The notes: a model not told the origin generated them from the letters alone. DNA of 64,000 nt from Candidatus Eiseniibacteriota bacterium (GCA_963792585.1 CAWBWI010000003.1:62942-126941), one strand, 5' to 3'; numbered from the stretch's first letter, positions 16,173-33,901 are shown. Translations and numbers: made by a program.

Positions 16173-17897
16173 TCAGGCCCGGTCCCCGGGACCGGTTCTG
16201 GCGCCTGCGGTCACCAGCAGCTCCGATCCCTGCTGGAGGCCCTCGTACAGGGCGGTCACGGTCGCGACGGTGTCGATCTCACCGGGCGCCTTGTCCCGTC
16301 GAAGGGCGTGGATCCTGGGGAACCGAAGGCTGAAGCCGCTGGCGTGACGCGTGCTTCGGACGATCACGTCGAAGGCGATCTCCACGACGATGACCGGCTC
16401 GACCTCGCGATATCGGCCGGACCGCGTGACCGTGTGCTCCTCGAACCAGGCCGTCATCTCCGCGATCTCGGAATCCGTGAGACCGCTGTAGGCCTTGCCG
16501 ATCTCGACCAGACGGCCGCTGGCCTCGTCGCGGATCGCGAACGTGTAGTCGGACAGGACACCGTGGCGCTTGCCATGACCGACCTCGACGCCCACGACCA
16601 CGCAGTCGATGGTAGCCAGGGCCTTCTTCATCTTCAGCCACCCCAGGCCGCGCCGACCGGGGGAGTACCCGCTGGCGGGATCCTTGACGATCAGCCCCTC
16701 GTTCCGACGGGCACGCGCGTCGGTGAATGCCGCCTCGAGGGCATCCGCATCGGCGGCGACCGACAGGTGTGACCGCAGGAACCGTCCACCGTCGGTGGCC
16801 AGGGGCATCGGGATGGCATCGAGCCGGGCGCGTCGGTTCGAGAGCGGCTCGCGCAGGACCGGCTCGGGGTTCCGGCTCGCCGGGTCGACACCAGGCCCGT
16901 CGGCCAGGACGTCGAAGGCGACGTAGATGACCGGGACATCGGCCTGGATCCGCGCCGACGGATCCTTGCGACCCAGGCGCGCCTGCAGGCTGATGAACGG
17001 CAGCACGAGGCCGTCCTTCCAGGCGAGGATCTCGCCGTCGAGGACGCCGTCCCAGGCGACCATCCGCGCCGAGTCGACGATCTCGGGGAATCCCGTGCTC
17101 ACGTCGTGCAGGTCGCGCGAGTAGAGCCGGACGTCCGTGCCGCGCTTGTGCAGCTGCGCCCGGATGCCGTCGTATTTGTCCTCCACCCACACTTCGGGGC
17201 CCAACCGCCGCACGATCTCGGCGGCGTCCTCGGCCGGCGAAGCGAGCATGAACTTGAGCGGGTGGAACACCGCCAGCCGGGCGGACGCAAGGGAATCATC
17301 GCGAGCCATGCGGGCCAGCCGACCGATATCGCCGGTCAGCATCCCGGCCCATCGAACGTCCTCCAGCGGGCGATCGAACGCCCGGGCGATGGCGGCCTCC
17401 ACGAGCCCCTCGCGAAGCCCGATTCGCAGGTCGCCGCCGAGGACCTTGATGATCCCGCGCGCCGTCGCCGGGTCAGACCGCTGGAGGAGGACGCGCAGCA
17501 GCGCGGTCTTGGGGCCTGGCCCGGATGCCGCCTCCATCGCCGCGAACGTGGCCGCCACGTCGCGGAGACTCGGACTCGTGTCCGGATCCGGATCGTGGCC
17601 GGCAGCGGCGAGGACGTCCTCCACGGCGAGGCTCAGGTCGGAGTGGCGGTCGTACGCCTCCCCGAGTTCGTGCCTCGTCACGCCGGCGACCTCCGCGACC
17701 GCGCCCGCGATCGCGGACCAGCCCAGTCCCGTCGCGCGCTGGTCCGCCTCCGGGAACGGGCGCCCGGTCAGGAAGACGGCGGCGATCGGAAGGTCGTCGG
17801 CGTCGAGGTCGTGCAGGTAGCCGGCCAGCAACGCGGTCTTCTCGGACGTCCGGGTGGTCGCCGCGACGCGTTCGGCGAGGTCGCTCCAGCGGCGCAT
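16173..17897 (-). CDS. lig: ATP-dependent DNA ligase
   Basis: FMLASP, VEDKYDGIRAQ (KxDG), LDGEI, EGLIVK, GRRGLGWLKMK, LRFPRIHALR. Confidence 0.96.
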   Translation of the reverse strand: MRRWSDLAERVAATTRTSEKTALLAGYLHDLDADDLPIAAVFLTGRPFPEADQRATGLGWSAIAGAVAEVAGVTRHELGEAYDRHSDLSLAVEDVLAAAGHDPDPDTSPSLRDVAATFAAMEAASGPGPKTALLRVLLQRSDPATARGIIKVLGGDLRIGLREGLVEAAIARAFDRPLEDVRWAGMLTGDIGRLARMARDDSLASARLAVFHPLKFMLASPAEDAAEIVRRLGPEVWVEDKYDGIRAQLHKRGTDVRLYSRDLHDVSTGFPEIVDSARMVAWDGVLDGEILAWKDGLVLPFISLQARLGRKDPSARIQADVPVIYVAFDVLADGPGVDPASRNPEPVLREPLSNRRARLDAIPMPLATDGGRFLRSHLSVAADADALEAAFTDARARRNEGLIVKDPASGYSPGRRGLGWLKMKKALATIDCVVVGVEVGHGKRHGVLSDYTFAIRDEASGRLVEIGKAYSGLTDSEIAEMTAWFEEHTVTRSGRYREVEPVIVVEIAFDVIVRSTRHASGFSLRFPRIHALRRDKAPGEIDTVATVTALYEGLQQGSELLVTAGARTGPGDRA

Positions 17898-17923
17898 GGC
17901 GGGGATGGTATACGGTTCCGGCG

Positions 17924-18649
17924 ATGGCGCCCCGAGCATGGTTCCCGGAGGTGATATGGGGGTCGCAGGTGGTGCTGCGCCGACATGTTCCCGAGAACCT
18001 GGCCTGGTTCCGACGCTGGTACGCCGACCCCGAGATCGCGCGGCTCGCGCGCTACCAGGAAGCACCGATGCGACCCGACGAGATCGAACGCTTCTTCGCG
18101 TCGAGGGTCGTCGGACCGGACGCTCTGTCGATGGCGATCCACGAACGTGACGGCGATCGCCTGATCGGCACGTGCGCCTTCAGCCAGCTCGACGGCGACA
18201 ACGGCTCGGCGCTCTACCACATCACGATCGGCGAGAAGGACGCCTGGGGCCGTGGATACGGCTCGGAAGCGACCAGACTCATGCTCGACCACGCGTTCGG
18301 GACACTCCGGCTCCATCGCGTGGCGCTGTTCGTGTTCGAGTTCAACGAGCGCGCGATCCGGGCCTACAAGCGCTGCGGGTTCGTCGTGGAAGGCCGATCC
18401 CGAGAGTCCATCTTTCGTGACGGACACTGGTGGGACGAGCTCGCGATGAGCGTCCTCGAGTCGGATTGGCGTCGCCGCCGCGATGCGCCGCCGGGCACTG
18501 AGGGCTCAGATGCAGCTGCCGCTACCCTCGCCCAGACAGCGGGGGTCACAGAACCGGTGGCGCACGCCGCCGCCCCCACTGCGGCATCAGCCGATCCGGC
18601 CCCGGCCAGGGGCGGTCTCGTCCGACGGACGATCAGGAGGTTCACATGA
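17924..18649 (+). CDS. GNAT N-acetyltransferase (RimJ/RimL type)
   Basis: IGEKDAWGRGYGSEA, NERAIRAYKRCGFVVEGR. Confidence 0.92.
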   Translation: MAPRAWFPEVIWGSQVVLRRHVPENLAWFRRWYADPEIARLARYQEAPMRPDEIERFFASRVVGPDALSMAIHERDGDRLIGTCAFSQLDGDNGSALYHITIGEKDAWGRGYGSEATRLMLDHAFGTLRLHRVALFVFEFNERAIRAYKRCGFVVEGRSRESIFRDGHWWDELAMSVLESDWRRRRDAPPGTEGSDAAAATLAQTAGVTEPVAHAAAPTAASADPAPARGGLVRRTIRRFT

Positions 18650-20626: not shown

Positions 20627-20715
20627 GGGTCGGCGGCCTCCAGGTCGGGGCGCGAGTATGCCCGACGGGCGGGACACGTAGAATCGGTCCACTTCCCCTC
20701 CGGAGACCCGCACCC

Positions 20716-21666
20716 ATGACTGACCTCAAGATCGGCATCCTGCCCTGGAGCCAGAGCGCCACGTGGCCGGAGATGCTCGACGCCGCGAAGCGCATCGACC
20801 GCCTCGGCTACGACCACCTCTGGACCTGGGACCATCTGTACGCGATCTTCGGCGACCCGTATCAGCCGATCTTCGAGGGCTGGACGACGCTCGCCGCCTG
20901 GGCCATGGCCACCGAGCGCGACCGCCTCGGCCTGCTCGTCGGCGCGAACACGTTCCGCAATCCCGGGCTCACCGCCAAGACGGCGGAGACGCTCGACCAC
21001 ATCAGCGGCGGCCGCGCCATCCTGGGCATCGGTGGCGCCTGGATGGAGCCCGAGCACACGGCCCACGGCATCGAGTTCGGGACCGGCTTCGGCCAGCGGC
21101 TCGACTGGATGGACGAATCGGTCGGCGCGATGCGTGCGCTCCTCGACGGCGAGGCCGTGACGTCCGCGCCGGGCGGCCACTACCGGTTCGCCGACCTTCG
21201 CCACGCTCCCCTGCCCGTCCAGGCGCACCTCCCGATCATGATCGGCGGCAGCGGCGAGAAGAAGACGCTACGGACGGTCGCCAAGTACGCGGACCTGTGG
21301 AACGCGTCGGGCACCCCCGAGGTCATGGCCCACAAGATCGATGTGCTGCGCGAGCACTGCGCGGCGGTGGGCCGGGACATCGCCGAGATCGAGTTCACCC
21401 TCGGGATCAAGCTCACGATCCGGGACACGAAGGCGGAGGCCGAGCAGGTCCGCTGGGCCGCCATCGAGCACAACCGGACGCCGCGCGCCGAGGTCGAGGA
21501 CGACGACACGTTCTGGGAGGGGTCGCCGGAGGAGATCGCCGACCGGCTGCGTCCCTACGTCGCGCTCGGCTTCACGACGATCATCTCCGAGCAGCCCGCG
21601 CCGTACGACATCGAGACGCTCGAGCGGTTCATCGGCGAGGTGAAGCCGCTCATCGACGCCGGGTAG
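20716..21666 (+). CDS. LLM-class flavin-dependent oxidoreductase (probably F420-dependent)
   Basis: LWTWDHLY, EGWTTLAAWA, RNPGLTAK...DHISGGRAILGIGGAW, IMIGGSGEKKTLR. Confidence 0.93.
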   Translation: MTDLKIGILPWSQSATWPEMLDAAKRIDRLGYDHLWTWDHLYAIFGDPYQPIFEGWTTLAAWAMATERDRLGLLVGANTFRNPGLTAKTAETLDHISGGRAILGIGGAWMEPEHTAHGIEFGTGFGQRLDWMDESVGAMRALLDGEAVTSAPGGHYRFADLRHAPLPVQAHLPIMIGGSGEKKTLRTVAKYADLWNASGTPEVMAHKIDVLREHCAAVGRDIAEIEFTLGIKLTIRDTKAEAEQVRWAAIEHNRTPRAEVEDDDTFWEGSPEEIADRLRPYVALGFTTIISEQPAPYDIETLERFIGEVKPLIDAG

Positions 21667-22315: not shown

Positions 22316-23521
22316 TCAGTCCAGCACGGACCCCAGGATCGCGCGCGCCTGCTCGAACGTCGGCAGGCGCGGCGAGTTGTTGATCGCGGCGTCGTCGAGC
22401 GCGTCGGTGGCCACGACGTCGAGGGCGGCTTCATCGAACCCGAGGCTCCGGAGCCGCGGTCGCAGCCCGAGCTCGCCGAGGAACGTCCGCAACGCGCCGA
22501 TCGCCGCCACGGCCCCGGTGGCGTCCGATTCGTTCGGCGCCGCGGCCCCCAACGCCAGGCCGATCAGCTTCATCTCCCGATCGCGAAGCCCAGGCTCGTC
22601 CGCGTAGAACGCGAGCACCTCCGGCAGCACGATCGCGAGCGCCAGGCCGTGCGGAAGCCGCCCACGCGTCCCGATCGCGTGCCCCAGCGCGTGCACCAGC
22701 CCGACCCCGGTCCCGCTCTGCCTGGCCGAGACCGGCGAGGTGCGAGGCCATGAGCATCTGCGAGCGCGCCTCCAGGTCCGACGCCGTCGGCGACCGCCCG
22801 CGGGAGCCACTCGCGGACCGTCCGGATCGCCCTGGAACGCCATCGCCTCGGCGAACGGGTTCGGGTTCGCGCGACAGCTTCGATTCGATCGAGTGGGTCA
22901 TCGCGTCGACGCCGGTCGCCGCCGTCGCGGCCGGTGGCAGCCCGACGGTCAGGGCCGGATCGAGGATCGTCCAGACGGGCAGCACGCGACGGGTGGCCGA
23001 CATAGTCCTTGCGTCCGGCGACCTCGTCGGTGATGACGCCGAACGTGTGGCATTCGGCCCCGGTCCCGGCGGTCGTCGGGACGGCGATGATCGGGCCGCC
23101 CGGGTTGAGGTCCTCACGGTGATAGCCGAGGGCGAGGACATCGCCACCGTTGACGGCGTGCAGCGAGATGACCTTGGCCGAATCGATGGACGATCCGCCG
23201 CCCACCGGCACGATGACCGTGCCCCGGGATCCCGAATGCCGCGAGGGCGGCGCTCCCGCGCAGGATGGAGGCCGTGCCGGGGTTCGGCTCGACCTCGGCG
23301 TACACGCCGACCGTCGAGCCCGCCCGCCTCCAGGACCGCGCGGACGCGATCGATCACCCCCGACGCCACCACGCCCGGGATCCGTGACGATGAAGACCTG
23401 TCGCCCGCCGGCGCTGCCGACCGCGGCGACCAGCTCGGGGAGCGCCTCGATCGCGCCCGACCCCGAACCGGACGCGGTCGCGCAGCTGGAGCTCGATCGT
23501 GCGATCCGCCAGCGACGGCAT
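22316..23521 (-). CDS. Iron-containing alcohol dehydrogenase (type III; possibly a choline dehydrogenase); multiple frameshifts
   Basis: Pieces assemble to VYAEVEPNP, GGGSSIDSAK, AVPTTAGTGAE, TGVDAMTHSIES, GLVHALGH...PHG. Confidence 0.9.
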
Positions 23522-23523
23522 CG

Positions 23524-23768
23524 TCAGCGGACCTCCAGCACGGTGTCCGATCGACGTGTCGCGCCGGACCGTCAGCCAGCGCCGGCAGCCGAAGGCGTGG
23601 AACCAGCGCTCGGTCGTCGCGCCGTCCGGGTTCTCGAAGATCCAGACCTCGTCGAAGTCGCGCTCGTCGGGATCGGTGATCCAGTCGGGCACCGCGCGAC
23701 GCTCGCCCCCGAAGGTGAACTCCTCGAGCGGACGGCGACCGCAGCGCGGGCAGATCGAGCGTGTGCAT
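23524..23768 (-). CDS. soxD: Sarcosine oxidase delta subunit (frameshifted)
   Basis: ICPRCGRRPLEEFTFGGE...ERWFHAFGCRRWLTVRRDT, the C-C-H-C Zn site. Confidence 0.9.
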
Positions 23769-24993
23769 CAGCGCGTCCCCGCCGAGCCGGCATCGGCCAG
23801 GACGTGGTCGCGCCGGAAGCGATCCAGCGAGAACGGGGCGATCAGGGCGGGCGGCCGGCCCGTGGCGATCAGCTCGGCCATCCCCTCGCCGCCGGCCGGG
23901 ATGGCCTTGAAGCCCCAGGTCCCCCAGCCGGTCGTGACGAAGAAGCCATCGACGCCGGTCGCGCTCATGATCGGCGAGTAGTCGACCGAGATGTCGCAGA
24001 TGCCGGCCCACGTGCGGAGGATCCGCATGTCGCGCAGGAACGGCAGCAGCCGGGTGATCTTGTAGCTGTACGAGCGCAGCGCGCTGTACGACGACTGGCG
24101 CGAGTACGACGGCTGGCTGTCGAACTCGGCGCCGATGAGCATCTGGCCGCGATCGGTCTGCGAGACGTAGCAGGCGAGCTCGGTCGAGGCCAGGATGAGC
24201 GGGAAGCCCGGCGCGTAGTCGTTGGTCACGAAGGCGTGCAGCGGATGGGTCCGGATCGGCAGGCGCAGCGCCGGCCATCGCGGCGACCTGGGTGATCCGG
24301 CCGCCGACCGCCGAGAGCACGACCCCGGCATCGATCGGCCCGGCCGTCGTGTCCACGCCGATGACCCGCCCACCGTCGCCGTCGCGGCGGATGGCCGTCA
24401 CGCGGCGTGTGCTGGAAGATGTCGACGCCGCGCTGCGACGCGACGCTCGCGAACGCCCAGGCGACCCGGTCGTGCCGGGCGGTGGCGCCCTCGACGTGGT
24501 GCGAGCCGCCGAGGACCGGGTAGCGGCCGCCGCCGGTGAGGTCCAGCTGCGGGACGAGCTCCTTGAGCTCCTGCGGGCGTGCGCATGTAGGTCTGGGCGC
24601 CGCAGGCCTGGTTCATGGCCGCGCGGGCGCGCTCGGTGCGCATCGCCATCTCGGTGTGGGCCAGCCAGATGATCCCCTTGGTCTGGTGGAGGATCGCCGC
24701 GCCGGTCTCCTCCTCGAGCGCCTGGTAGCGCTCCAGGGAGTGCTGGTAGAAGCGGATCGACTCGGGGATGCCGTAGTTGGCCCGGATGATCGTCGTGTTC
24801 CGGCCGGTGTTGCCGCTGGCGATGTAGTCGGCCTCGATGACGGCGACGTTCGTGATGCCGTGGCGGGTCGCGAGGTGGTAGGCCGTCGAGAGGCCGTGGC
24901 CGCCGCCGCCGATGATGACGACGTCGTAGCTCGCGCCTCGGCGGCCCGTCCGGCCAGCGGATCGGCGAGCAGGGTCCGGGTGTAGTCGCTCAT
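23768..24993 (-). CDS. soxB: Sarcosine oxidase beta subunit-like FAD oxidoreductase (frameshifted)
   Basis: DVVIIGGGGHGLSTAYHL, GNTGRNTTIIRANY, RHDRVAWAFA, WAGICD, GWGTWGFKAIP. Confidence 0.92.
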
Positions 24994-25367
24994 CGCAGCC
25001 GGTCCATGCGAGCTCGTCGGCGTAGGCGGCGTGGACGACGATCGTGGCGCCGCCGTCGTCGGTCAGCCAGCAGCTTCGCCGGGACGCCGGCGATCGACCC
25101 CTGGGCGAGGGCCGGTCGCTCGATCGGGAGCGCCCATTCGATGTGCGCCGGACGCACGTCGCAGGTCGACCGGACCCGCCGACGAACCCGGTCTCGTCGT
25201 CGACGATCGCGTGCTGCGTCGTCGACCTCGACGCGCGGTGGCGCCGATGCGCGAACGCCTCGTCCGGCGCGAACCGCAGGACGGTGACGTCGCGTCGCCG
25301 GCGCCAGCGCGCGCCGTCGAGCGCCGCCGGGTCGGCCACGACGCGCGTGCGCCGCGCGAGCGATCAA
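24990..25367 (-). CDS. soxG: Short gamma-subunit-like protein (frameshifted)
   Basis: Coupled between the alpha and beta genes; VLRFAPDE...IVDDETGF...HIEWALP...LAQGSIAGVPAKL. Confidence 0.55.
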   Translation of the reverse strand: MIARAAHARRGRPGGARRRALAPATRRHRPAVRAGRGVRASAPPRVEVDDAARDRRRRDRVRRRVRSTCDVRPAHIEWALPIERPALAQGSIAGVPAKLLADRRRRRHDRRPRRLRRRARMDRLR

Positions 25368-27573
25368 GCGCGGGCACGGTGGCCCTCCGGGTCGTAGAAC
25401 GGCGTCGGCGGTGACGACCGCCTCGCGGCCGTCGATGACGACACGGTCCGGATGCGGCGGCCGCCGCTGCCAGCCGAGCATCAGCGCCTTGCCCAGCAGC
25501 GGGGAGTGCCAGCTCCCCGTCACGTTGCCGATGACCTCGCCACCGTCGCATCGAAGATCGGCGACCCCTCGACGGGCGCCGGGCCGTCCATCGAGAATCC
25601 GACCCAGCGCCGGTCGTCGGGGAGCTTCGCGGTCCGCTCCAGCGCCGCCCGGCCGATGAAGCGCGGCTTCTCCATCCGGACCGCCCAGTCCATGCCGAGC
25701 CGGCGCGGCGTCGTGTCGAGCTCGGTGTCCATGCCGACGATGACGTGGCCCTTCTCGAGGCGCAGCCCGAACAGCGCCTGCAGGCCGTGCGGCCGGATGC
25801 CCAGGTCACGGCCGGCCTCCATGAGCGCACGCCACAGCTCGACCGATCGATCGACCGGGTGGTGGAGCTCGAACGCGGCCTCGCCGGTGAACGACAGGCG
25901 CATGACGTGGCAGTCGACGCCGGCGATCACGGCGCGGACGTGGCCCAGGAAGCGCGGTGGCTCCGGGAGGCCGAGGCGGCCGCAGCAGCTCCCCGGCGAG
26001 CGGCCCCGTGACGTTGATCGCGGCGAGCGACATGGTCCGATCCATGACGTGGACGCGGAGGCCCCACGTCTCGATCCAGTCGCGCAGCCACATCTCGGCG
26101 TTGGCCGCGCCGCCGGACGTGAATGACAGCGTGAACCGCGTCTCGCCGTCGCGCAGGATCATCCCGTCGTCCATGACGTGGCCGCGCTCGTTGAGCAGCA
26201 GCGCGTAGCGCGAGCGGCCGACCTTGATGTCCGCGACGTGGCACGGGTAGAGCCGCTCCAGCGCCTCGACGACGTCCGGCCCGCTGACGACGAGCTTGCC
26301 GAGCGTGCTCACGTCGCCGATCGAGACGCCCTCGCGGACCGCCCAGTACTCGGCGACGGCGTCGCCGTAGTGCCACGGCCGCCACCAGCCGCCGAACCGG
26401 TCCATCCGGGCGCCCAGCGCGAGGTGCTCGTCGTGGAGCGGCGTCCGCCGGAAGGCGTCGACCGTCGTGTCCGCGGCGGCCTCGGCGAGGGTGATCTGGC
26501 GCGACGCCGGCCGGGCCGTGAACGGGTCCGGGACCTCGCCGGTCCGGGCGGCGATCCACGAGCGGACATGGGGCAGGCAGGCGCCGCCCTGGCAGGTGCC
26601 GATGCCGGCGAGGGTGCGCGCGCTTCAGCAGCTCCAGGTTCGTGAACCCCTTCGACCAGGCTTCGTCGAGGTCGCCGACGGTCACGTCCATGCACCGGCA
26701 GACGACCGCGGTCGGGTCGGTGGGCGCGGCCGGGAGCGGGTGGTCGTCGGCCGCGGCGCCAACGGTCGAGACCGGCAGGGTCGGCCCGGCCATCCGCGCG
26801 AGCAGGTCCCGCGGCGCCCGGCCGAGATCGACGATGACGGTCCGCGCCGCGATGGATCCGCCCGTCGTGACGACCGTCGTGACCCGACCGGCCGCGTCGC
26901 CCTCGAACCGGACGAGCTCGCGGCCGACCGTCACGACCGGTTCCGGCAGAGACGACGCCGGCGGCCCGGAGCTGGTCCGCTGCCCGCGGGGTCAGCAGCC
27001 CGTCGAGATCGTTGCCCGGGCAGACCGGCTGGATCTCGGCGGCGCCGGTCGCGACGACGATCTCCTCGGTCTCGACGTGGAGCATCCCGGTCGGCGTCCG
27101 CGCGACGACCGTCGGGCCGGGGTAGACGGCGACGACCTCGTTCCCCTCGGCGGCGTCGAGGACGAGCGCGCCTCGCGTGCGTCGGCGGCGGCCCGCCGGC
27201 CGCGTCGCCCCCACCGATGACCACGACCTCCGCCTGCCGGCGCTCGACCGGGACCTCGCCGACGACCGACCCGCGCGGCAGCGGCGGGTTCCCCGCGGCC
27301 GGGTGCCGCTCGACCACGCGTCCCCGGACGCGCCGGGACCTGGCACGTCCGGACGTAGGCGATGCCATCGACGACCGCCAGGCAGTTCCCGCAGTCGCCG
27401 GCGAGGCACAGCGTCCCGCCACGCCCGGGCGGCTCGCCTGCCCGCACGATCGCGACCGCGAGCGCTGTCGCCCTCCTGCGCGTCGATCGGCCGGCCATCG
27501 ACGACGATCCGGCCGCTGACCGACGCACCCGGTCGCGGCCCCCGAGGCCACGGGCCGCCGAGCCGTCGGTCAC
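25364..27573 (-). CDS. soxA: Sarcosine oxidase alpha-like subunit: 2Fe-2S + short Rossmann + BFD-like 2Fe-2S + GcvT folate domain (many frameshifts)
   Basis: LCLAGDCGNC...RTC; VVCRCMDVT...GIGTCQGGAC; DVSTLGKLVVSGPD; RLSFTGEAAFELH; LRLEKGH; TPFYDPEG. Confidence 0.85.
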
Positions 27574-30038
27574 TGGCGCATCCGCAGGCCCTGCGGGTCG
27601 AACAGCGGCTCGGGCTGGAGCCGCGCCGGCCGCCGTCGGCCGATGATCTCGATCTCGAAGCCGTTGCCGCCGGGGCCGTCCGGCGTCGCCAGCGCGGCAG
27701 GCACGTACCCGAGCGCGATCGATCGCCCCACGTGATGCCCGTACCCGCCGCTGGTGACCCAGCCGACGACCTGCGTCGTCGTGCCAGATCGGTTCGTCGC
27801 CGATGACGTCGGCGGGATCGTCCGGGTCCGGCTCCACGACGAACGTGACGAGCCGGCGCGTCGGCCCGTCGCCGGCGAGTTCGGCCTCGTAGGCGCCCCG
27901 CCCGATGAACTCGTGGTCGAGCTTGACGTAGCGCCCGAGACCCGCCTCGGGCACCGTGTAGATCGGCCGGTACTCGCGGAACCACGTCCCGTAGCTCTTC
28001 TCCAGGCGCAGCGACATCAGCGCCCGCATCCCGAACAGCCGCAGGCCGAGGTCCTGGCCGGCCGCGACGATCTCGTCGAACAGCGGGCGCTGGTACTGCG
28101 GCGCGACCCACAGCTCGTAGCCCAGGTCGCCGCTGTAGTTGATCCGGGCGACGTGCGCCGGGACCATCCCGAGATCGACCTGCCGGAACGTCATGAACGG
28201 GAACGCCTCGGACGACAGGTCGAGGTCGGAGATGCGCGACAGGAGCTCCCGCGACAGGGGGCCCGTGACCGACAGGCCGGTCAGGCCCAGCCCCAGGACC
28301 TCGAACCGGACGCTTCCGTCGGGCGGCAGGTGGTGGCGGAACCAGCGCGAGTGGTGGACCTCCGCGGGGAGCGACCCGAAGAGGTGGAACTCGTCGGTCT
28401 CGCTCGCGCGCGCGATCGTGAACTCGCCGACGATCCGGCCCGCGTCGTTGAGCATGGCGGTCAAGGCGATCCGCCCAGGACGCCGGCATCCGTTGGGTCA
28501 GCATCGACGACAGCCAGGCCTCGGCGCCCGGACCGGTGACCCGGTACTTCGCGTAGTTGGAGATCTCGGTCATGCCGACCTGCTCGCGGACGGCGGCGAC
28601 CTCGGCGGCGACCTGCTTCCAGGCATTCGAACGGCGGAAGGTGACGTCCTCGACCGGGGCCAGCCCGTCCTCCTGGAACCACAGGGCGTGCTCCAGGCCG
28701 TAGGTCGCCCCCCAGACCGCATTCGCCGCCGTCAGCCGGTCGTAGATGGGCGTCGTGAGGAGCGGTCGGCCGTCGGGCAGCTCCTCGTTCGGGAAGGTGA
28801 TCCGGAACCGGCGTCGATAGTTCTCCTGGACCTTCGCGTTGGTGTAGGCGAGCGTCGCGTAGTCGCCGTAGCGCGCGACGTCCATGCCCCAGATATCCAT
28901 CCCGGAGTCGCCGTGGTCGCCGGCGGTCATCCAGGTCGCGAGCGCGAGGCCCACGCCGCCGCCCTGCGACAGGCCGGCCATCACGCCGCAGGCGACCCAG
29001 AACCCGCGCAGGCCGCGGACCGGACCGACGAGCGGGTTGCCGTCAGGCGAGAACGTGAACGGGCCGTTGACGACGCGCCGGATCCCCGTCGTGCCCATCG
29101 CCGGGTAGTGCTTGAAGGCCACCGAGAGTTCGGGCGTCAGGCGGTCCAGGTCCTGCTTGAGCAACTGCGATCCGAAGTCCCACGGGCGTCTCCTTCGGCG
29201 ACCACGGCACGCACGCCTGCTCGTACGTGCCCAGGAGCATCGCCCCGCCCTCCTGGCGGATGTAGATCTCGCCGGCGAAGTCGAGCGCCATCGGCATCTC
29301 GTGGCCGGTCTTCGCGACGTGCGCGGCGACCTCCGGCATGTCCTCGGTGATCAGGTAGTGGTGCTCCATGGCGAGGACCGGCAGCTCGAGGCCGACCATC
29401 CGCCCGACCTCGCGCGCCCACAGCCCGCCGCAGTTCACGACGTGCTCGGCGTGGATGGTGTCGCCGCTCTCGACGCGGACGTCCCAGGTGCCGTCCGGAC
29501 GCTGCGACAGCCCGACGACCGGGGTGTGCTGGTAGACCTCCGCGCCGGCAAGCTGGGCGCACTTCACGTACGCGCGCGTGACTCCGCTTGGGTCCACGTG
29601 CCCCTCGATCGGGTCGTAGAGCGCGCCGACGAAGTACTGCGGATCCAGCAGCGGGAAGAGGTCCGCGGCCTCGGCCGGCGAGATGAGCTCGAGTTCCATC
29701 CCGAGGTACCGTCCGCGCGCCTGGGCCATCCGCAGGAAGTCCATCCGGACCTCCGTGTCGGCGAGCATCAGGCCGCCGGGCAGATGGATGGAGCAGTCCT
29801 GGCCGGAGACGCGCTGGATCTCGTCGTACAGCTGGATCGTGTACTGCTGCAGCCGAGCGACGTTCGGGTCGCCGTTGAGCGTGTGCATCCCGCCGGCCGC
29901 ATGCCAGGTGGACCCCGCCGTCAGTTCGCGCCGCTCCAGCAGGACCACGTCAGTCCAGCCGGCCTTCGTCAGGTGGTACAGGACGCTGGCGCCGACGACG
30001 CCCCCACCGATGACGACGACCTGGGCAGACGACTTCAC
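27570..30038 (-). CDS. Dimethylglycine dehydrogenase-like GcvT-family protein (FAD domain + aminomethyltransferase; frameshifts)
   Basis: VVVIGGGVVGASVLYHL, TAGSTWHAAG, NGPFTFSPDGNPLVGP, GMRALMSLRLEKSYG. Confidence 0.93.
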
Positions 30039-30205
30039 AGGACCCTCCACGGACCACTCGAATGCATCGGTAGCCTACGCGACGGGCGGGTCGACGCGCC
30101 GAGGCGATCACGCGAACCCTGCTGGGCAAGCTTCCGTCCCAGTCACCCCACGAATCCCGTGGAAGCGCGGCGGGTCGCTTGCGGCCCGATTACTCGTCCG
30201 CGGTA

Positions 30206-31196: not shown

Positions 31197-31412
31197 AGTA
31201 GTCCGTGGGGACGCCGCCCTCGGCGACCCGGCGGGCGACGAACGCGTCGAGCTCCTCGCGGATGCCTTCGTCCATCGGCGGCGGCTCGTAGGCGCCAGAG
31301 AGCTCCTTCCAGTCCGGTTCGCCTTCGGCCGGCACCTCCGGCGATCCGGCCTCCTGCCAGGTCTCATAGTTCCGCCAGTCGGACAGCATCGGCTTGTGGA
31401 AGGCCGTCGCGG
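31193..31412 (-). CDS. mttB: C-terminal fragment of an MttB-family (trimethylamine/glycine-betaine) methyltransferase; 5' part lost at the junction
   Basis: TAFHKPMLSDWRNYETWQEAGS...W...YEPPPMDEGIREELDAFVARRVAEGGVPTDY matches the MttB-superfamily C-terminus. Confidence 0.8.
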
Positions 31413-31413
31413 T

Positions 31414-32156: not shown

Positions 32157-33659
32157 CTAAGCCCGAGGGACCTTCTGGTCGTATTCCCCCGTCACCCCAA
32201 CTTCGCGAAGCCGCGCGGTGATCGCATCCACAATCGCCACCATCTGCTTCTGCGACGTGGGCGACTCGGCCACGATCACGAGGGACGGCTTGTTGGATGA
32301 CGCGCGGATCAGCCCCCAACTCGCGTCCTCGAAGACGAAGCGGACGCCGTTGACCGTCACCAGATCGCGGATCTTCGCCCCGCCGATCGTGACCCCCGCG
32401 ATCCGGTCCTTCTCATAGAGCGCCGTCAGCGTATCCACAACCGCGTACTTCTTGTCGTCAGGGCACTCGATCCCAAGCGTCGGCGACTGATAGGTCGTCG
32501 GGAGATCGTCGATCATCTTGGACAACGGCTTGTCCGCCGCGTCGAGCAATCGCAGGACCTGGGCCGCCGCGAGGGTCGCATCGTCGTATCCGCGGCCGTA
32601 CGGCTCCTTGAAAAACCAGTGGCCGCTCTTCTCGAAGCCGGCGATCGCGTTGACTTCGTTCACCTTCGACTTGATATAGGAGTGGCCGGTCTTCCACATG
32701 ATGACCTTGGCGCCGGCCGCCTCGAGGACCGGATCGATACCGAATAGACCCGTGCTCTTGACGTCGATCACGAAGGCCCGATTCGGGTGCGTGGCGGAGA
32801 TCCACCGCGCCACGAGCAATCCCAGCTTGTCGGCGAAGACCGGCCGGCCCTGATCGTCGACCACACCCACACGATCGCCATCGCCGTCGATCCCGATCCC
32901 AAGCTGCGCGCCCGATTCCTTCGTCACCCGGCTGATATCGTCCAGGAAGCTCATGTCCTCGGGATTCGGGTTGTGGCGCGGGAAGGTCCAGTCGGGGGAG
33001 CAGTCCAGCTCGTGGACCTCGCAACCGAGGTCGCGAAGGACCGTGGGGGTGAAGCGACCGGCGGTCCCATTCCCCGCCGCCAGGACGACCTTGATCGGCC
33101 GTGTCAACTTGCCCGCGCGGAGGACGTCCTTTCGGTATGCGTCGAAGACCTCGTTCGTCGCCTCATGCGATCCCTTGCCGGATGCGAACTTGCCCCCCAT
33201 GACGATCTGCTTGAACTGGAGAATTCCGTCCGGGCCGAGGGTCGAGGATAGACCGTTCGCCACCTTGAGACCGGTCCAGCCGTTTTCGTTGTGGCTTGCC
33301 GTCACCATGGCGGCGCCCTTGACGCCGAAATGATGCTGCGCGAAGTAGGTTAGCGGCGTCACCGCGAGGCCGATATCGATCACGTGCACGCCGGTCGACA
33401 TCAACCCAACGGTCAGGGAGGTGCAGAGATCCTGGCTGTAGGAGCGGAAGTCATGCCCGACGACGACCCTGTCCTCCTTCAGGATCTCCCGCACGAAGGT
33501 GCCGTACGCTTTGCCGAGGACGATGAACCCGTTCGGGTTGATCTCCTTGCCGAGGACCCAGCGAACATCGTATTCGCGGAATCCATTGTCCGTGATCAGC
33601 GTCTCCTCGAAGTAGTCGAACGAGTTGTACGGCACCTTCTTCGCGACATCCCAACGCAT
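32157..33659 (-). CDS. Phosphomannomutase/phosphoglucomutase
   Basis: GFREYDVRW, TASHNE (phospho-Ser), DGDGDR, GFEKSGH, GLIRASSNKP; GGAGG before ATG 33659. Confidence 0.96.
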   Translation of the reverse strand: MRWDVAKKVPYNSFDYFEETLITDNGFREYDVRWVLGKEINPNGFIVLGKAYGTFVREILKEDRVVVGHDFRSYSQDLCTSLTVGLMSTGVHVIDIGLAVTPLTYFAQHHFGVKGAAMVTASHNENGWTGLKVANGLSSTLGPDGILQFKQIVMGGKFASGKGSHEATNEVFDAYRKDVLRAGKLTRPIKVVLAAGNGTAGRFTPTVLRDLGCEVHELDCSPDWTFPRHNPNPEDMSFLDDISRVTKESGAQLGIGIDGDGDRVGVVDDQGRPVFADKLGLLVARWISATHPNRAFVIDVKSTGLFGIDPVLEAAGAKVIMWKTGHSYIKSKVNEVNAIAGFEKSGHWFFKEPYGRGYDDATLAAAQVLRLLDAADKPLSKMIDDLPTTYQSPTLGIECPDDKKYAVVDTLTALYEKDRIAGVTIGGAKIRDLVTVNGVRFVFEDASWGLIRASSNKPSLVIVAESPTSQKQMVAIVDAITARLREVGVTGEYDQKVPRA

Positions 33660-33901
33660 CAGTGTCCTCCCTCTTGGGGGCACGGCGGCCCGACCGTTGA
33701 TGATGCCCGATGGCAGGAGATCCATCAAGGCGAGGATTGGCACTGCAATCGGCACACACGCGACGCCTCCGCCACAGTCTCCGCCTGCGGGTCCCCGGCC
33801 ACGTTATCTGGAACTCGCCATTCGGATACCACGCGAGCCCCTCCAATCCTCTGACCGCCCGGATGGTGTACGATTTCGGATGAGAAGAGGAGGTCGATCC
33901 G

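Follow-up and report, generated by a model that had tools for sequence, protein, structure and literature searches.

It is confirmed that the minus strand at 27573..23524 of a 64,000-nucleotide stretch deposited under Candidatus Eiseniibacteriota bacterium (GCA_963792585.1, CAWBWI010000003.1:62942-126941; hereafter the window) encodes the alpha, gamma, beta and delta subunits of a sarcosine-oxidase-like complex. Taken as a whole, the locus is probably best explained as the alpha-gamma-beta-delta (A-G-B-D) core of a choline/glycine betaine-to-glycine operon of the Candidatus Limnocylindria type, which would encode a trimmed iron-sulfur (Fe-S), tetrahydrofolate (THF)-linked sarcosine dehydrogenase, with the frame breaks of the window copy representing consensus errors.

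Subunit architecture of the complex

The genes of the window were placed by frameshift-aware protein-to-DNA alignment to an intact relative, L019, an Illumina metagenome-assembled genome (MAG) of Candidatus Limnocylindria, with which the window is collinear over 7.7 kb at 83% nucleotide identity. The region has a G+C content of 70-75%, and its minus-strand fragments match the Pfam families DAO, Fer2_4, Fer2_BFD, FAO_M and GCV_T. A plus-strand reading was ruled out, since the plus-strand open reading frames (ORFs) of the region have no Pfam match, which places the genes on the minus strand. A first-pass annotation of the window had delimited the locus to 23524-27573, and these positions coincide to the nucleotide with the stop of delta and the start of alpha; the order A-G-B-D that it proposed is found in the window and in 80 of 80 related loci. 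The four genes, followed by the domains of alpha, are:

25364..27573, minus strand: alpha, compact SoxA-like, about 730 aa (736 in L019); alignment to L019 alpha P0011, 615/721 identical residues, in-frame stops 0
about 24990..25359, minus strand: gamma, trimmed SoxG, about 120 aa; assigned by its position between alpha and beta and its predicted fold
23768..24993, minus strand: beta, SoxB-like with DAO domain, 406 aa; phmmer match to 1vrq_B, PF01266
23524..23768, minus strand: delta, SoxD-like, 80 aa; PF04267
27303..27502, minus strand: alpha Fer2_4 [2Fe-2S] domain (PF13510); Cys codons 27408, 27393, 27384, 27345
26722..27251, minus strand: alpha trimmed dinucleotide-binding (Rossmann) remnant; weak Pyr_redox_2/NAD_binding_8 matches, GxGxxG at 27215..27199
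26472..26706, minus strand: alpha BFD-like [2Fe-2S]/SO_alpha_A3 domain (PF04324 and PF17806); Cys codons 26700, 26694, 26594, 26579
25391..26438, minus strand: alpha folate-binding GCV_T and GCV_T_C module (PF01571, PF08669 on P0011)

The alpha subunit of L019 contains Fer2_4 (residues 14-79), Fer2_BFD/SO_alpha_A3 (291-368), GCV_T (380-631, 225 bits) and GCV_T_C (655-728, 32 bits) domains together with a weak Pyr_redox_2 remnant, in agreement with the proposed fusion of two Fe-S motifs to a folate GcvT domain. The first motif, C45-x4-C50-x2-C53-x12-C66 (window codons 27408..27343), matches the published pattern Cys-x4-Cys-x2-Cys-x11-12-Cys (PMC4575208). The second, C293-x-C295-x32-C328-x4-C333 (window codons 26700..26577), reads CRC...CQGGAC, and its x32 spacer exceeds the published Cys-x-Cys-x(15-20)-Cys-x4-Cys range (PMC4575208); its four cysteines still align with four of the four corresponding cysteines of 1y56_A, the alpha subunit of Pyrococcus horikoshii PDH1 (L-proline dehydrogenase). 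In 1vrq_A, the best-matched solved sarcosine oxidase alpha, the alignment places Cys at none of the four BFD positions. All eight cysteines are present in the window, as had been claimed, and are invariant in 73 compact sequences, the corrected window copy included; they are predicted to form one Fer2_4-type and one BFD-type [2Fe-2S] site. The likeness to opine and proline dehydrogenases noted earlier is also borne out, these enzymes carrying the same two [2Fe-2S] motifs (PMC4575208).

The alpha gene is compact at about 2.2 kb, as first described, with a product of 736 aa in L019 compared with 963-965 aa in solved alpha chains. An AlphaFold2 model of alpha (predicted local distance difference test score, pLDDT, 90.8) matches 1vrq_A and 2gag_A over the whole chain at Z of about 46 (46.4 for 1vrq_A), with 719-720 residues aligned that span chain residues 18-965. 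Within this model, residues 1-368 match 1y56_A (Z 28.7), the folate module matches the glycine-cleavage T-protein 1wos (Z 46.6, root-mean-square deviation 1.7), and residues 106-281 align to the first Rossmann domain only of dihydrolipoyl dehydrogenase and YpdA (Z 9-10). Alignment of compact with full-length alphas reveals several deletions totalling about 200 aa, one of which takes out the beta-alpha-beta unit of the second nucleotide-binding domain. The retained Rossmann domain largely keeps its GxGxxG and ATG motifs, with G117 present in 73/73, G119 in 64/73 and G122 in 63/73 sequences. The NAD+ bound by classical tetrameric sarcosine oxidase has, to our knowledge, no known redox role. A second, more divergent compact alpha lineage, represented by the P0121 cluster (752-756 aa, 61% identity), has a degenerate GxGxxG (IGSRSDTG), and given this degeneracy the nucleotide site may be dispensable in some compact members.

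The partner subunits complete the complex. Beta matches 1vrq_B (phmmer E 7e-96, about 50% identity; PF01266 at 214 bits), and its His173 does not vary in 63 sequences, that of the window among them. This residue lines up with the histidine of the AKHDH stretch in 1vrq_B, and it carries covalent FMN (flavin mononucleotide) in the classical enzyme. Delta matches PF04267 (E 1.5e-21), and its Cys3His zinc site, formed by C6, C9, H57 and C61, is likewise invariant in 63 sequences including the window. Gamma sits between alpha and beta in 76 or more loci and has no match by sequence in Pfam, NCBIfam, PDB phmmer or PDB profile searches. The AlphaFold2 model of gamma (pLDDT 94.4) finds its best matches in the SoxG chains 2gag_C (Z 9.8, 116/120 residues) and 1vrq_C (Z 9.6), followed by T-proteins at Z 7.8, and a weak hhalign relationship links it to the approximately 240-aa gammas of full-length relatives (E 2.3e-4, probability 44%, 91 columns). 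By its modelled structure, gamma is thus predicted to be a half-length SoxG, recognisable by fold only.

Operon context and distribution

Start and stop codons overlap along the cluster, and the GTG start of alpha overlaps the stop of the gene upstream. The neighbouring genes of the window are:

27570..30038, minus strand: DMGO-like, dimethylglycine oxidase/dehydrogenase-like protein with DAO-FAO_M-GCV_T-GCV_T_C domains, 821 aa; upstream in the same operon, Pfam on the L019 ortholog, 721/820 identical
22316..23521, minus strand: iron-containing alcohol dehydrogenase (Fe-ADH), 398 aa; downstream of delta, Pfam Fe-ADH and ADH_Fe_C on the L019 ortholog
31197..31413, minus strand: MttB-family methyltransferase remnant, last 70 codons; tblastn recovers only residues 452-521 of 521

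In L019 the order runs aldehyde dehydrogenase, MttB (521 aa), a PIN/Phd pair, DMGO-like (821 aa), alpha (736 aa), a 120-aa ORF, beta (406 aa), delta (80 aa) and iron-containing alcohol dehydrogenase (398 aa). The Phd/YefM-PIN toxin-antitoxin pair lies between mttB and the DMGO-like gene of that MAG (L019:5842-6488); at the corresponding site, 30.1-31.2 kb, the window carries other sequence, about 70% identical to L023:1765-2453.

Homologues were sought with the best-preserved fragment of the window, the GcvT piece 25953-26624, which retrieves over 2,000 proteins. Identity to it is 86-95% among the top 120, and most of the complete ones measure 700-760 aa and contain Fer2_4, BFD, SO_alpha_A3, GCV_T and GCV_T_C; their source names are '2Fe-2S iron-sulfur cluster-binding protein', 'sarcosine oxidase subunit alpha' and 'glycine cleavage system aminomethyltransferase T', and the organism, where recorded, is Candidatus Limnocylindria/Limnocylindrales or Chloroflexota. 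A scan of species-representative genomes yields 449 stretches that encode relatives, from which 80 loci were kept (L019-L098). The order MttB, DMGO-like, A-G-B-D, Fe-ADH is found in all 80, wherever the contig is long enough, while an aldehyde dehydrogenase stands at the cluster in L019 and in about 30 loci overall. The Limnocylindria cluster (L019:2028-14280 and the other 79 loci) resembles a complete choline-to-glycine route, comprising Fe-ADH, aldehyde dehydrogenase, a pyrrolysine-free MttB-family methyltransferase, the DMGO-like enzyme and A-G-B-D. An IclR regulator and an enolase-family gene lie upstream of it, and no corrinoid protein partner for MttB is seen near it. Three compact-cluster contigs with 65-76% identity to P0011 (L033, L045 and L097) sit in MAGs that bear the labels Verrucomicrobiia, Saccharimonadales and Patescibacteria, a placement that probably reflects binning contamination.

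A search of 1.84 billion cluster representatives gives 978 matches at E <= 1e-30. Among the 74 listed matches of at least 650 aa, only a handful of clusters are of the compact form; nearest to the query (37-46% identity) stand about 30 clusters of full length (820-990 aa) with all eight cysteines, and Cys-less canonical forms are more distant (33-40%). The first-pass annotation had regarded the Fe-S motifs and the rearranged order as distinctive, a view that does not hold: many metagenome SoxA-like proteins of 870-990 aa carry the eight cysteines, and across 80 metagenome loci the full-length Fe-S alphas occur in the orders D-A-G-B, A-G-B and B-D-A-G. The Fe-S motifs and a rotated order are therefore not special to this locus. 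Cys-less alphas in the same loci always follow beta, and every gene order observed is a rotation of one circular order, B-D-A-G. Only the shortening of alpha and gamma and the precise A-G-B-D rotation are clade-specific; the Fe-S motifs and rotated orders are widespread. In L124, L130 and L131, full-length SoxA-like alphas retain the BFD-type cysteines only, those of Fer2_4 being gone, and such forms may be intermediates toward the Cys-less oxidase type.

In a quick tree of the C-terminal half of alpha, the compact clade is monophyletic (support 100) on a long stem and joins a long-branched Cys-less marine clade. This junction possibly reflects long-branch attraction and makes the sister group unreliable; therefore no conclusion on the sister group or the ancestral state is drawn from the tree. 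A literature search returned no paper on Fe-S SoxA enzymes, nor on sox genes in Limnocylindria.

Integrity and origin of the window copy

As deposited, none of the cluster genes in the window is an open frame, and the third-position G+C signal shifts frame every few hundred bases in the region. Nucleotide alignment with four relatives over 22.3-30.0 kb reveals 32 private single-base insertions in the window against 0-1 per relative, together with two further private insertions of 2 nt and one of 4 nt. About 22 frame-breaking insertions fall within the four A-G-B-D genes, and the earlier advice to polish the sequence was apt. Gene by gene along the six-gene cluster, the insertions number about 8-10 in alpha, about 7-8 in gamma, 5 in beta, 2 in delta, 3 in the DMGO-like gene and 9 in the Fe-ADH gene. 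Once the frames are corrected, the window genes contain no in-frame stops, and the six genes are 72-90% identical to L019 in amino acids, with ratios of nonsynonymous to synonymous substitution rates (dN/dS) of 0.13-0.33. The assembly consists of 7 contigs with a marker completeness of only 84%.

Because the +1 insertions are private, the relatives are intact, in-frame stops are lacking and dN/dS is 0.13-0.33, the frame breaks are read, with high confidence, as errors in the consensus of a long-read metagenome assembly rather than as gene decay. The frame breaks, about 35 in all, are concentrated in the six-gene cluster at 22,316-30,040, so that error density is strongly local; an ATP-dependent DNA ligase and a luciferase-like monooxygenase (16,188-18,020 and 20,650-21,663) each run in a single frame relative to L019. 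The competing account, that the operon is truly decaying into a string of pseudogenes after a rearrangement that removed most of mttB, would accommodate this concentration of breaks within 22.3-30.0 kb beside neighbours in one frame, as well as the truncation of mttB. It is nevertheless improbable: 32 of the private indels are +1 insertions, while real gene decay is usually expected to be deletion-biased; in-frame stops are absent and dN/dS stays at 0.13-0.33; and mttB is broken at the site of a probable chimeric join.

This join is indicated by several features of the contig (C3) from which the window derives. Its first 94 kb or so have a G+C content of 70-72%, compared with about 65% for the remaining genome, and the abrupt composition step at window position of about 31,410 (C3 about 94,350) falls where mttB is cut down to its last 70 codons. 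Nucleotide homology to all Limnocylindria relatives ends abruptly at 31,408-31,413. The nearest relatives of the genes differ between the two sides, being Limnocylindria-like on the high-G+C side and from the MAG's own family on the other: the phosphoglucomutase gene at 32157-33755, on the lower-G+C side, shares 66% identity with a same-family relative, whereas the ligase on the high-G+C side is 75% identical to L019 and only 36-39% identical to that of any relative of the MAG. A DNA search of 20 relatives of the MAG yields short chance matches only, a protein search of 40 relatives finds GcvT-size paralogues and no SoxA-like gene, and a SoxA-like gene is likewise absent from a 200-genome sample of the host phylum. 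The junction near 31,410 contains neither a tRNA nor a convincing repeat. The most likely source of the cluster is a Limnocylindria bacterium, with misassembly having fused its DNA to the MAG in a chimeric contig; the alternative is a 94-kb transfer.

Proposed function and comparison with known systems

In the classical tetrameric sarcosine oxidase (TSOX), sarcosine is oxidised at the flavin adenine dinucleotide (FAD) of beta, the electrons reach O2 by way of the covalent FMN, and the C1 unit is captured by THF on alpha (PMC3691474 and the wider literature on the family). In the complex described here, sarcosine supplied by the neighbouring DMGO-like enzyme would be oxidised on beta, and its iminium carbon would be handed to THF on alpha, yielding glycine and 5,10-methylene-THF. 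The two electrons would then exit through FAD, FMN, the BFD cluster and the Fer2_4 cluster to an acceptor, rather than reducing O2 to H2O2. Sarcosine is proposed as the substrate because of the neighbouring genes, namely the DMGO-like gene upstream and the MttB gene heading the cluster, and a dehydrogenase function is suggested by analogy with the characterised Fe-S relatives, which are dehydrogenases. By the same analogy, the acceptor-linked dehydrogenase put forward in the first-pass annotation is reasonable; the electron bifurcation that it offered beside this is unsupported, the complex showing neither a second site for a donor or acceptor nor a bifurcating-flavin module, and the locus no partner gene.

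Several points weigh against this proposal. The substrate draws on the neighbours only, and the subunits of Sox and N-methylglutamate dehydrogenase are easily confused (PMC13236597). The FMN site could react with O2. No conserved acceptor gene (electron-transfer flavoprotein, ferredoxin, cytochrome or quinone reductase) is found near the cluster, where the flanking-gene survey returns as conserved neighbours only GNAT, MerR, ABC1 kinase, luciferase-like, ligase, IclR and enolase-family genes. The literature search found no biochemical evidence for any Fe-S SoxA-like member, and the window copy as written is unable to make protein.

The absence of an acceptor gene near the cluster is also what an O2-dependent oxidase like TSOX would predict, with the Fe-S sites structural, regulatory or vestigial and the electrons passing from FMN to O2. 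The beta subunit, about 50% identical to SoxB of the solved oxidases with His173 kept, and the overall alpha fold, which matches that of TSOX alpha, are consistent with such an enzyme. This reading is nonetheless somewhat doubtful, since the invariance of the eight cysteines in 73 compact and in many full-length forms argues for bound clusters under selection, every characterised relative with both motifs is a dehydrogenase (PMC4575208), and the existence of Cys-less forms demonstrates that loss of the cysteines does happen. The complex might instead act on another N-methyl substrate, such as N-methylglutamate, dimethylglycine or another methylated amine, with the DMGO-like neighbour handling sarcosine. 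The subunits of TSOX and of N-methylglutamate dehydrogenase resemble each other and are frequently mis-annotated (PMC13236597), the compact alpha clade lies on a very long branch, and the four subunits of L019 fall below the NCBIfam sox cut-offs (TIGR01372-01375: soxA 263 against 1164, soxB 405 against 529, soxD 69 against 116.5, soxG no match). The conserved neighbours, however, are betaine-pathway genes (MttB, DMGO-like, aldehyde dehydrogenase and Fe-ADH) where the contig reaches, and glutamine-synthetase-like or N-methylglutamate synthase genes (gmaS, mgsABC) are not seen within about 8 kb, no genome-wide search having been made; a substrate other than sarcosine is accordingly judged unlikely.

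Flavin-based electron bifurcation, for its part, is barely credible. The two flavins and two Fe-S clusters per complex are the sole resemblance to a bifurcating enzyme, whereas there is no sign of a low-potential acceptor or of an NAD(P)H module, the dinucleotide module has been cut down rather than elaborated, the flanks of the cluster hold no conserved ferredoxin or partner gene, and no characterised relative bifurcates (PMC4575208).

Extending the sarcosine dehydrogenase proposal beyond the compact clade, we tentatively consider that the compact complex and the wider Fe-S SoxA-like group may together represent a THF-coupled sarcosine dehydrogenase, its FAD and FMN wired through two [2Fe-2S] clusters to a cellular acceptor without H2O2 formation, and that this may be the ancestral state, the textbook oxidase being a derivative that lost the clusters. 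The ferredoxin-like and BFD-like domains of the classical oxidase have no such cysteines, and a large set of relatives keeps both [2Fe-2S] sites, suggesting that these domains are relics of an electron wire. The streamlined Fe-S version is fixed in Limnocylindria, bacteria that recur in metagenomes from soil and fresh water. Should the Fe-S forms be dehydrogenases, these bacteria would break down betaine and sarcosine to the benefit of a cellular acceptor, without H2O2 release and with a changed energy yield. This would also bear on oxidative cross-talk, since algal death has been linked to betaine-driven H2O2 from bacteria (PMC13381886). As a naturally minimal construct, the compact form further lends itself to tests of which parts of alpha and gamma can be dispensed with.

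Comparison with TSOX (Corynebacterium sp. U-96, 1x31/1vrq; Stenotrophomonas maltophilia, 2gag) reveals the same four subunit types, encoded here by adjacent genes. Shared features include a beta of about 50% identity with His173, the Cys3His site of delta, the SoxG fold of gamma, and an alpha whose A3 domain and GcvT-type folate module belong to a whole-chain fold match (Z 46). Unlike TSOX, the alpha described here is about 230 aa shorter, with its dinucleotide module reduced to one Rossmann domain, and it provides eight cysteines for two [2Fe-2S] sites, while the BFD positions of 1vrq_A are Cys-free; gamma, at about 120 aa, falls short of the 190-195 aa of the solved chains. The gene order is A-G-B-D rather than B-D-A-G, the canonical soxBDAG order having been correctly cited for the characterised tetrameric sarcosine oxidases (PMC3691474). 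The first-pass annotation had held that its case would fall if characterised oxidases already shared this architecture and order; the solved chains do not share them, whereas uncharacterised full-length relatives do share the Fe-S motifs.

The Fe-S dehydrogenases of the DAO family (OdhABC, D-hydroxyproline dehydrogenase, the archaeal L-proline dehydrogenase 1y56 and HcnABC) share with the complex a DAO-family catalytic subunit and two [2Fe-2S] motif types. Opine, D-hydroxyproline and L-proline dehydrogenases carry the same two motif types, and opine dehydrogenase, which contains FAD, FMN and [2Fe-2S], uses artificial acceptors and not O2, and is thus a dehydrogenase rather than an oxidase (PMC4575208). 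These enzymes lack the folate GcvT module, SoxG and SoxD, all three of which are present here; the ferredoxin-like module frequently forms a gamma subunit of its own, and the nucleotide-binding domain of alpha is full. Sarcosine use by Bacillus thuringiensis requires a DAO-type locus with separate 2Fe-2S proteins (PMC4941409). N-methylglutamate dehydrogenase MgdABCD is a homologous four-subunit enzyme and a dehydrogenase of an N-methyl amino acid; it differs in its B-D-A-G-like order and in its linked methylamine-pathway genes, which are not seen at the cluster described here.

Close counterparts are also found in the uncharacterised full-length Fe-S SoxA-like complexes of metagenomes and MAGs (for example P0134, P0160 and P0162; loci L102-L141), which share both Fe-S motifs, the folate module and the beta, gamma and delta partners. 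Their alphas are 39-46% identical, and many show the alpha-gamma-beta adjacency, as D-A-G-B or A-G-B. They differ in the length of alpha (870-990 aa) and gamma (about 225-245 aa), and the exact A-G-B-D order occurs in none of them.

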